Virus record (IMG/VR): IMGVR_UViG_2734482775_000002
Span: 1 to 39,804 of that record
Strand: one strand, 5' to 3'
Source of the DNA: a virus
Lineage: Duplodnaviria > Heunggongvirae > Uroviricota > Caudoviricetes
Length of the DNA: 39,804 nt
Shown here: one piece after another, positions 30,001 to 33,000 of the stretch
How positions within the stretch are numbered: position 1 is the stretch's first letter
How the letters are laid out: every line of letters begins with the position of its first letter
Position numbers: made by a program

Positions 30001-33000
30001 CAGCGCTTCCTGCGCCGCCAGTAATGCACGGCGTTCCAGGGTATCGAAGATGCAGAGTCGGTGACGCAGCTCGCGCGGAAGAATTGCCAGAACCGCAGGG
30101 ATCAGTTTCTGAATTTTTTCCCTTTGCGCTTTCGTTTCACCTTTCAACCAACGGTGATAGATATTCTGCTGATTGTTCCAGTCCTTGCCTGGTACCAGGG
30201 GCAATTCGCCGCCCCCCTGGCGCAGATATTCTTCAGTAATTGCGTTAGCGACCCACGCCTGCCCTTTTTCGGCTGCCAGGGCTAACAACACTGATTCGAT
30301 GTGCTCATGCCTGATTTTCATGAATCAACCGCTCCTATGCTGTTTTCGCTATGCTTACCGTCTGGGGGGAATACATCGTCAAGTCCACAATGAGCGCCAA
30401 GCCGATTAAGGGTAGAAACAATTTTTCTGCACTCCTCTAGTCCTGGGGTACGAAAATTTGCTTCGTAATTTGCCAGTCGGCTTTGTATCCACCCTAACTG
30501 AACAGCAAGTTGTCTTTGAGACAGCCCAAGCTGTTTTCGATATGTTGAAATTTTGTTCATTAAAAACCTCCGATGACAATTTTAAACACACCTTGTGTTA
30601 TATGGTCAAGCTATTTTGTGTTTTATGTAAATCACGATTCGTGATACAAGGATGCAATGGAAAAAGAAAACGAAAAAATTGCCGCTAGTAGGCTCAATGA
30701 CAAAATTGCAATGCGTCTTAAAGAGCGCAGGCAGAAGCTTGGTTTATCTCAAGGAAAACTTGCTGAAATCTGCGGATGGACGCAATCGCGTATAGGTAAC
30801 TATGAGGCGGGCAGCAGAAATGTTGGAGTGCATGACGCTGTCGTATTGGGAAAGGCACTTGGCATATCTCCTCCTGAGCTCCTCTTTGGAGAACAGGAAT
30901 CTTCTGAATTGTGGTTAAATGAATCCCAACGAAAACTTCTTGAGTTGTTTAACCAGCTACCGGGCTCAGAACAACAACGAATGATTGAGCTATTTGAAGT
31001 CCGGCTAAAAGAAATCGATGAGTATGTAGAAAAATATTTGAGAGGCAGGCTTAAAGATAATCCCCCACCGGAGTAATGATCTTGCTATCACAGTAATATG
31101 CCAATCAGCCCGCTGTCAGCGGGCTTTTTTGTACCATCATCATATGACACCCACCATAAAACACATTTCGTGTTGACATAAGAAAACACATTGTGTTTAA
31201 TAAGCATATCCAAACAACGCCCCACCAGAGAACGGCAGGACAATACCTCGAGTTATCCAGCCACTGAACAGGGCTAAGTAGCCAGCCTGAGGCATACGAA
31301 CATGACGGCAGTTGTTGATTGATACAAAGCGCAGTAGATAAAACGTTCCGCCACCCGGCGTTAAGGGGAAAAAAGATGGTTGGTGAAGATCTGGTTGTTA
31401 TTAACGGTCAATTGTGCAGCAAAGATGTGGCAGCCATGCTTATTAGCAAGGTTCTTCCAACTGTGCTGGAGGTCATTGCAGAAAAAGTAAAGGCTGGTCG
31501 TCCAGACAAGGAAGTTGAAGAGGCGGCAAAAACAGTTGTTCATGCCGCTACAGAAGCAATTATTTTGAAGAGCCAAGTTTCGCCCAAGCCTTAAGTGAAT
31601 CGGCGCTTTTTTTAGCATCACGTTCATTGAGTAGTGACAAAAACTCATTCTCAGCATTCTCGATTTCCGAGAAAAATTCTTGATGAGTTGTTTCTCGCTG
31701 CGATCTGATGCTGAAAGCTAAAGCAAGTAGCCAGGCTTTGTCTTTATTATCCATAGGAATACCTTATTACTGGTTGTGTGAGAACTCCAGTATACCACCG
31801 AGCCTGAAGTGGTAAAAAGACAGGCGCACAACACGAAGGCGCATTTCCGGTATTCATAAAGAGCCGGTCTTGTCTGTTAAATTTAAATGGTGGGAGTGCG
31901 CCTCCGGTTGTAAATAACGACATTGCTGTGTGTAGTCTTTGGCGACATCAGTTCTACTCCGTGGCTGCCCTGCCGCCCCTTTTTAAAGTGAATTTTGTGA
32001 TGCGGTGAATGCGGCTAAGCGCACGCGGCACAGTTAAAAGCATCAGTGTTATGGGTGGATTATCCGGCGTTAATTGTTAACTGGTTAACGTCACCTGGAG
32101 GCACCAGGCACCGCATCGACAAAATTCATTTGTAAAAATGGAGATAATTATGATTGCTCATCACTTCGGAACTGATGAAATACCACGTCAGTGTGTGACC
32201 CCTGGCGATTATGTTCTTCATGAAGGTCGGACATATATCGCCTCGGCAAACAATATTAAAAAGCGAAAACTTTATATTCGTAGCCTGACTACAAAAACAT
32301 GCATTTCTGACTGCATGATTAAAGTCTTCCTCGGTCGTGATGGTTTACCTGTAAAGGCGGAGTCATGGTAATGGCTAAGAAAATAAAATGTGCTTATCAC
32401 CTTTGCAATAAAGAAATTGAAGAAAGCAAAATCATTACAAGACCACTTCATTTCATGCGTGGAGTTATACCAACGACGGAAATGAAAAAATATTGTAGTG
32501 AAATCTGTGCCGAAAAAGACCAGATGGCACACGAACTTTAATTAACTGACTATCCGAAACTGAATTTATGCCAGCAATGGCAGGGATTCGCTCAACCTTA
32601 ATTAAGGAGAAAAACATGATTACCAGTTATGAAGCCACTGTTGTTACTACTGATGACATTGTTCACGAAGTCAGCCTGGAAGGAAAGCGTATTGGCTACG
32701 TGATTAAGACAGAAAATAAAGAAACCCCATTCACTGTGGTTGATATCGACGGTCCATCAGGCAACGTTAAAACACTTAACGATGGTGTTAAAAAAATGTG
32801 TCTGGTGCACATAGGAAAGAATCTGCCCGCAGAAAAAAAAGCCGAATTTCTGGCAACTCTGATTGCAATGAAATTAAAAGGTGAAATCTGAAAAAAAGAA
32901 AGCCTGCACACTGTGCAGGCCTGAGTGAAGAACCAGGGACATTTATTCATCACTCGCAGTAATTTTAATCTGAGTTGAGGTTAAAAAACAATGAGCACCG

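Follow-up and report, generated by a model that had tools for sequence, protein, structure and literature searches.

A conserved pair of convergent, overlapping small genes downstream of the pL-like promoter in a Rac-like prophage of Escherichia coli

Results and discussion

Two convergent small genes that overlap at their 3' ends

The DNA analyzed here is a 39,804-nucleotide viral sequence (IMG/VR record IMGVR_UViG_2734482775_000002, Caudoviricetes; 'the window' below), which represents a Rac-like lambdoid prophage of Escherichia coli. The chromosome of E. coli RM8082 is 100% identical to window bases 31080-32140, a region that includes two small open reading frames (ORFs), here called A and B. 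ORF A (31376-31594, plus strand), a predicted small early protein of 72 amino acids, begins with ATG and has the Shine-Dalgarno sequence AAGGGG at 31363-31368, 7 nucleotides 5' of the start. ORF B (31560-31754, minus strand), of 64 amino acids, also begins with ATG and is preceded at a distance of 6 nucleotides by AAGG (31761-31765, minus strand). The two converge, and their 3' ends share 35 nucleotides (31560-31594). The original prediction for this region, of convergent 72- and 64-amino acid ORFs with a 35-nucleotide overlap and a ribosome-binding site each, is thus borne out by the coordinates. Both ORFs are called in RM8082 by the Prokaryotic Genome Annotation Pipeline (PGAP) as 'hypothetical protein' (A, WP_047087968.1; B, WP_001419881.1), and each matches a phage protein family to which no function has been assigned: PHROG 23495 for A (E = 5.9e-49, positions 1-72 of 72) and PHROG 22868 for B (E = 5.3e-47, positions 1-64 of 64).

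Both frames are conserved as protein-coding genes

Because ORFs as long as A and B often arise by chance in the window, their presence by itself is no proof of coding. Loci from fetched contigs were compared together with 35 IMG/VR loci; in what follows, loci carry L numbers and protein variants P numbers. About 50 prophage loci of E. coli, Salmonella, Klebsiella, Raoultella, Citrobacter and Edwardsiella carry the pair in this arrangement, with protein identity of approximately 40-50% at the lower end. In the 43 usable loci both frames are kept with an overlap of 29-35 nucleotides, and the ORF lengths are kept in every close relative. Across the non-overlapping parts of both genes, the proportion of nonsynonymous differences (pN) is 0.04-0.39, versus 0.14-0.93 for synonymous differences (pS). 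Between the window and the Klebsiella locus L005, for example, pN and pS are 0.20 and 0.68 for A, and 0.39 and 0.75 for B, while B has a dN/dS of 0.10 relative to the Salmonella locus L008. Third codon positions are the most variable among the unique A and B sequences, B homologs show in-frame deletions of three to four codons, and the annotated frame is the only one that is always open (21 of 21 unique A and 19 of 19 unique B nucleotide sequences). An antisense ORF of 98 amino acids opposite A (31361-31657) stays open in just one of the 21 variants and was discarded as spurious.

Given that pN is far below pS, that indels are in frame, that a single frame stays open and that conservation crosses genera, this comparison identifies A and B as real protein-coding genes under purifying selection across genera. 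The earlier caution that either ORF could be spurious is therefore not upheld, and the lack of frame conservation in related prophages that would have supported it was not found. Of 5,426 complete E. coli genomes, 29 carry the cassette. It is also widespread in prophages of Klebsiella, where it occurs in many contigs, and one deposited phage, Klebsiella phage ST405-OXA48phi1.2, has it as well.

The A protein

Homologs of A, 71-72 amino acids in length, were found in Salmonella, Escherichia sp., Klebsiella and Raoultella by single-sequence and profile searches, and some family members (P0071, P0072) carry N-terminal extensions. In variant P0001, A is lengthened to 102 amino acids. The family is very small, with 15 cluster representatives at E <= 0.001 among 1.84 billion proteins. 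A scan with the A profile of a contig collection holding one genome per species gave a sole, doubtful match in a Nomurabacteria genome, a near-empty result attributable to that sampling. The AlphaFold model of A (mean pLDDT 81, pTM 0.61) consists of a beta-hairpin (residues 6-15) and two long helices. A matches no Pfam family at E <= 1, and its model finds nothing with E below 0.1 in PDB or BFVD by Foldseek. Its 72 residues include a single arginine (R42); the absence of an arginine-rich motif, noted in the original prediction, is thus correct.

The B protein

Homologs of B (55-64 amino acids) occur in Salmonella, Escherichia sp., Klebsiella, Raoultella, Superficieibacter, Citrobacter and Edwardsiella. 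The AlphaFold model (pLDDT 77) has two helices, residues 3-19 and 24-62, and a Foldseek search of PDB with it returned nothing with E below 0.1. The models of A and B are both amphipathic helical proteins, and no membrane-spanning hydrophobic stretch was seen in either, as judged by eye without a transmembrane predictor. B shows no similarity to the SieB exclusion protein; PHROG 22868 is its only match, with none in Pfam or PADLOC. Weak matches to Imm49, KRTDAP and SDR, met in the searches with A and B, were rejected as far under their thresholds. Literature searches with the RefSeq and PHROG identifiers, KilS and YdiH returned no functional information on A or B.

A run of seven T residues (31607-31613) lies inside B at codons 48-50, in a Lys-Lys region. 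Two E. coli variants, P0029 (59 amino acids, 30 contigs) and P0030 (54 amino acids), part from B exactly at this run, which implies, from the sequences, +/-1 frameshifts that alter the C terminus of B. Locus L016 also bears on this point.

The one lead outside the prophage family is YdiH (PF15930), a 62-amino acid core-genome protein of E. coli near B in length. The alignment is collinear, with residues 9-57 on 9-57 at 27% identity and an hhalign probability of 72%; B may thus be described as a two-helix, remotely YdiH-like protein. The minus-strand ORF of the remote locus L054 is matched by the B profile at 83% and matches PF15930 with E = 1.2e-4 and 22.6 bits, under the gathering score. The B of the window has no match to PF15930 in the Pfam scan, and no member of the B family reaches the gathering threshold of 27 bits (best E = 0.093). 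Unlike B, ydiH lies on the chromosome and lacks a convergent A-like partner. For YdiH itself, only a low-confidence inference of a role in oxidative stress is available (PMC12356324).

The pL-like promoter and the leader of A

A sigma-70 promoter of pL-like appearance was read from the sequence at 31173-31201 on the plus strand, with TTGACA (31173-31178) and TTTAAT (31196-31201) separated by 17 nucleotides. A stricter promoter scan omitted it, since its -10 hexamer has T at the second position. The original prediction placed A immediately downstream of this promoter. A is indeed the first ORF 3' of it, but the two are separated by a leader of about 170 nucleotides and are not literally adjacent.

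Two copies of a putative repressor operator, AACACATTTCGTGTT (31160-31174) and AAAACACATTGTGTT (31183-31197), bracket the promoter. The pattern AACAC-N5-GTGTT, with at most one mismatch, occurs three times in the window, twice at the pL-like promoter and once in the intergenic region between the repressor and cro genes (30585-30599). The count is weak by itself, as at least three matches were found in 12 of 100 shuffled sequences; it is the placement of the motif in the immunity region that leads us to read these as candidate sites of repressor binding. A promoter bracketed by such predicted operators has the signature expected of a repressor-controlled promoter of the pL type.

Directly 5' of A lies a conserved leader and translation-initiation region, AACGTTCCGCCACCCGGCGTTAAGGGG (31342-31375, plus strand). 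It precedes A in E. coli, Salmonella and most Klebsiella loci, the exceptions being L006, L048, L050 and L051. The same 36-41 nucleotides are found in many other E. coli genomes that do not have A, and in the Rac prophage of K-12 the homologous leader and ribosome-binding site precede ydaG (translation '...PPPGVKGRDKM'). Because of this distribution, A appears by sequence to be an exchangeable first gene behind a common translation-initiation region.

By eye, the leader of A includes a small conserved hairpin-like stretch, CGCC-ACCC-GGCG. No boxA was seen there by eye, without a formal nut-site search. On the minus strand, 31218-31242 within the pL leader is a G-U-rich, and hence strand-specific, terminator-like hairpin followed by a weak T tract, with a fold z-score of only -1.4. 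This hairpin could end a read-through transcript from B just before the pL promoter.

The promoter of B and the absence of a terminator between the genes

B has a predicted promoter and leader of its own (31755-31830, minus strand), consisting of a -35 element TTTACC (31816-31811), a 16-nucleotide spacer, an extended -10 element TGgTATACT (31797-31789), the leader and the Shine-Dalgarno sequence. This promoter was found by the promoter scan, including the TG of the extended -10. Over the 75 nucleotides 5' of B, E. coli and Klebsiella loci share an identity of 0.79-0.85, compared with 0.56-0.68 for the coding parts. Functionally equivalent -35 and -10 elements precede B in the Edwardsiella/Citrobacter and L051/L052 types, and in E. 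coli strain 155 the same promoter block lies 5' of a different, B-like ORF of 55 amino acids in the same slot. The block contains no repressor operator. An apparent inverted repeat within it, TACCAC-N10-GTGGTA and GCCTG-N14-CAGGC, was weighed as a possible operator, although the greater part of it falls on the -35 and extended -10 elements. On the plus strand, the region folds no better than shuffled sequence.

Upstream of B in L051 is a motif of 12-13 nucleotides, TTCCACAGTCAAA, with TTCCACAGACAA as its counterpart in L052. In L051 and L052/L092 it is present in two copies, one over the -35 region and one in the leader of B, and the copies change together between loci; as judged from these sequences, it could be a regulator-binding repeat.

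The overlap is also better conserved than its surroundings, with an identity to Klebsiella loci of 0.78-0.86 versus 0.56-0.68 in the single-coding parts. The frames are offset such that the wobble position of either gene is the second codon position of the other, and this dual coding accounts for the higher conservation. Folding of the overlap is no better than for shuffled sequence on both strands, and the idea that it holds a structured RNA or a bidirectional terminator was therefore rejected. No terminator-like site or significant fold was found between the genes (31540-31640) on either strand, and therefore each transcript must run antisense into the other gene. The two predicted promoters point towards each other across about 580 bp. 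The mutually interfering transcripts suggested in the original prediction are thus a reasonable consequence of the layout, in which these facing promoters, both of them consensus predictions, have no terminator or stable hairpin between them.

Remote pairs and single-gene loci

The pair is kept in all close relatives, and diverged versions exist further away. L097 combines P0072 with a B of 61 amino acids, both diverged, and L054 has P0079 with the YdiH-like minus-strand ORF in an 83-nucleotide overlap. In L095 (E. coli strain 155), an A-like ORF of 119 amino acids (hhalign 82%) and a B-like ORF of 55 amino acids (61%) overlap by about 10 nucleotides; as a control, YdfC gave 0.2% in hhalign versus A. 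The L095 ORFs lie at 1958-2319 (plus strand) and 2310-2489 (minus strand), and the remote A-like domain is in the C-terminal half of the former. PGAP calls this plus-strand gene a partial pseudogene (1958-2077), yet the frame is open for 119-120 amino acids, and the gene is probably mis-annotated.

Loci with a single gene are of both kinds. L053 has a gene for N followed by A, without B, and the remote locus L096 likewise has no B. Conversely, L052, L092 and L094 have an intact B with its promoter, and of A only a frame-disrupted C-terminal remnant. In both kinds, the C terminus once in the overlap has drifted, in agreement with a relaxation of the constraint that dual coding imposes. Because genes that overlap are co-inherited in any case, we favor two independently functional genes, with a direct partnership of A and B as the main rival.

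A toxin-antitoxin pair of type I or II is not supported: the mutual dependence of such partners is contradicted by A alone in L053 and L096 and by B without an intact A in L052, L092 and L094. A and B also lack the matches of a toxin-antitoxin or defense system, with none in PADLOC, Pfam or NCBIfam, and, by eye, no membrane-spanning hydrophobic stretch.

Comparison with known prophage regions

The region closely resembles the Rac prophage of K-12. There the order is racR, ydaG, ydaF, sieB (opposite strand), KilS small RNA, kilR, ydaE, racC, recE, and the window matches it; ydaT, the helix-turn-helix (HTH) repressor, kilR, ydaE, racC, recE and recT are all present in the same order. B corresponds to sieB in its slot, which has the first pL genes on one side and kilR on the other, and in its orientation against pL. 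In addition, sieB is convergent with ydaF with a 3' overlap of 4 nucleotides, and B too overlaps the preceding pL gene. Part of the region upstream of B and of sieB is homologous, although the promoter-proximal 60 nucleotides differ. B thus has the slot and orientation of sieB and its own predicted promoter, conserved across genera. The proteins, in contrast, are unrelated in sequence: SieB has 162 amino acids, whereas B is a soluble-looking two-helix protein of 64. For the small exclusion proteins also raised in the original prediction, B thus offers the slot of sieB but no resemblance to SieB or to any PADLOC defense model. A is likewise unrelated to YdaG and YdaF, and a relationship to either was rejected.

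The dicB operon of Qin (dicA - ydfA/ydfB/ydfC - DicF - dicB) shares with the window a DicA-type repressor, small early ORFs, DicF and a division inhibitor. Its YdfC, like A, has 72 amino acids and is encoded just upstream of DicF, but BLASTP found nothing and the hhalign probability is 0.2%, so homology to A was rejected. Unlike the window, Qin has no B-like convergent gene.

Interference between convergent promoters occurs in temperate phages, as in pR/pL of coliphage 186, pR/pRE of lambda, and the OOP and paQ antisense RNAs. The A/B locus resembles these modules in its face-to-face promoters, one of them belonging to the lytic program, and in overlapping transcripts with no terminator between. 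It differs in that both transcripts encode conserved proteins and the promoters are about 580 bp apart; here, interference is a prediction.

A two-gene accessory cassette as the favored explanation

We consider it somewhat more probable than not (roughly 0.55) that A and B form a conserved two-gene accessory cassette, in which A is specific to induction, B is expressed by the prophage, and transcription of the two is mutually interfering. The position of A behind a repressor-controlled pL-like promoter leads us to expect no expression of it in the lysogen and early synthesis once the prophage is induced. B would be transcribed in the lysogen from its own operator-less sigma-70 promoter, which points against pL. 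This conserved promoter without an operator, combined with the slot and orientation of sieB, makes B most likely a prophage-expressed gene of the 'moron' type. In the lysogen, transcription of B would oppose leaky pL transcription towards DicF and kilR; on induction, strong pL transcription would run across B and its promoter and switch B off. Convergent transcription would thereby make expression of A and B reciprocal and may damp leaky read-through to DicF and kilR. B may be an accessory protein of the lysogen that modulates the host or acts in exclusion, and A may serve early on as an accessory or escape factor. We infer from this arrangement when the genes are expressed, that they interfere, and what either protein may do.

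Several observations weigh against this explanation. Pairing of A and B is near-constant, including the remote pairs L054, L095 and L097, and could mean that the two are direct functional partners and not independent genes. The frameshifted P0029 and P0030 show that the C terminus of B, or B itself, is dispensable in those E. coli genomes. Both promoters are consensus matches, and in a scan of the whole region promoter-like sites were no more abundant than in shuffled sequence. Finally, neither protein has a match in Pfam, NCBIfam or PADLOC, a Foldseek match in PDB or BFVD, or a sequence-profile match in PDB.

If the near-constant pairing does reflect partnership, A and B would be a dedicated interacting pair, with B as an exclusion, toxin or immunity factor, A as the early escape or neutralizing factor, and the overlap maintaining linkage and reciprocal expression. 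SieB and Esc of P22 and lambda follow an analogous logic, and the slot of B is that of sieB. Pairing is kept in every closely related locus, and in L054 and L095 both partners have diverged together with the pairing retained. We nevertheless judge this unlikely, as A occurs without B in L053 and the remote L096, B and its promoter are intact where A has decayed (L052, L092, L094), physical linkage of overlapping genes suffices for co-inheritance, and neither gene matches defense or toxin-antitoxin models. A wider version, in which A, B and the remote pairs of L054, L095 and L097 would make up an unrecognized two-protein module of enterobacterial lambdoid prophages, seems to us quite unlikely; here a YdiH-like exclusion or host-modulating factor made in the lysogen would be counteracted by an induction-specific partner, with convergent transcription making the two reciprocal.

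Alternatively, the B locus may work mainly as RNA, its transcript being a long antisense RNA to A and the pL leader and its promoter a roadblock, so that the toxic DicF and kilR are silenced in the lysogen and the peptide is secondary. The promoter and leader of B are the best-conserved part of the cassette, the absence of a terminator after its stop codon should extend antisense transcription through A, with the weak terminator-like hairpin lying in the pL leader (31242-31218, minus strand), and frameshifted B variants persist in some genomes. What makes this very unlikely is the purifying selection on the protein, with pN of 0.04-0.39 versus pS of 0.26-0.93 in the non-overlapping part of B, together with in-frame indels, a conserved start and Shine-Dalgarno sequence, and remote homologs at the protein level, YdiH included. 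An RNA-only element would not hold one frame open in 19 of 19 variants. The other two explanations we regard as barely credible. That A is a divergent antiterminator, of the N type or another, is suggested only by its position as the first ORF after the pL-like promoter. It is effectively refuted by the one arginine in 72 residues, the lack of a match to Pfam N_peptide, the predicted fold of a beta-hairpin plus helical hairpin, and the separate N_peptide genes directly 5' of A homologs in L051 and L053; in L095, moreover, the A-like gene is third in the operon. Calling this an N-like gene position was accordingly misleading, as in L051 and L053 an N_peptide gene lies between the repressor and A, and in Rac of K-12 it is ydaG that follows the same leader. 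A chance origin of one or both frames in non-coding sequence would agree with their short length, their lack of annotated function and the many ORFs of similar length in the window. The comparative data refute this reading through frame conservation, pN far below pS, in-frame indels, and an antisense shadow ORF that is open in only 1 of 21 variants.

The two-gene accessory cassette is an arrangement of a familiar kind, in which small accessory genes of the early left operon meet a moron in antisense. Two genes annotated as 'hypothetical protein' can thus be treated as one defined unit, with a clear regulatory layout and with DicF and kilR, whose expression is toxic, as neighbors. Should B be expressed in the lysogen and act in exclusion or host modulation, it would be a small-protein addition to the sieB slot and would suggest a possible function for YdiH-like proteins; otherwise, the cassette is one more accessory gene pair. 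Current views of lambdoid regulation are unchallenged in either case. The two-protein module, if true, would also offer the first clue to what YdiH, an orphan core protein, does.

Prophage context and additional observations

Upstream of the cassette are ydaT (29899-30321) and a cro-like HTH gene (30318-30560), both on the minus strand, followed on the plus strand by the DicA/RacR-type HTH repressor gene (30657-31076; Pfam HTH_3). The terminator of the repressor gene, at 31107-31125, lies between it and the pL-like promoter. Downstream, a DicF homolog (31927-31978, plus strand; Rfam RF00039, 53.8 bits) is located between the promoter of B and kilR, and is followed by kilR, ydaE, a racC-like gene, recE and recT, in that order. 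In Rac of K-12, the annotated KilS small RNA is at the place corresponding to DicF. The DicF-bearing stretch 31830-31990 has no counterpart in the Klebsiella/Raoultella loci and only a short one in the Edwardsiella/Citrobacter loci; the Salmonella and Escherichia sp. loci can be aligned across it, yet have no Rfam match to DicF. DicF was therefore rejected as a part of the cassette, being absent from the Klebsiella, Raoultella, Salmonella and Escherichia sp. loci. Rfam detected no RNA family inside the cassette itself.

Just 5' of kilR, a non-coding block at approximately 32084-32110 (plus strand) is conserved and contains the small hairpin CCTGG-AGGCA-CCAGG. The version in Klebsiella loci is CCGGG-AGGCA-CCCGG, a compensatory double change, and this points to a structured RNA within the pL transcript immediately ahead of the kil gene. 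A further conserved block, GTGAATGCGGCTAAGCGCACGCGGCACAGTT, is found at about 32005-32035. The recE-like gene (32991-36137, plus strand) encodes 1,048 amino acids, versus 866 (2,601 nucleotides) for RecE of K-12, and the protein has a long middle part that is acidic and of low complexity.

Elsewhere in the window, Rfam matches on the minus strand identify the C4 antisense RNA with its a1/b1 targets, together with isrK (22267-22465), sok of a hok/sok-type module (24638-24787), and the RalA antitoxin RNA (37458-37636), with ralR nearby. At the right end, an Rfam match to SraC/RyeA-SdsR/RyeB (39198-39342) probably marks the chromosomal flank of the prophage.

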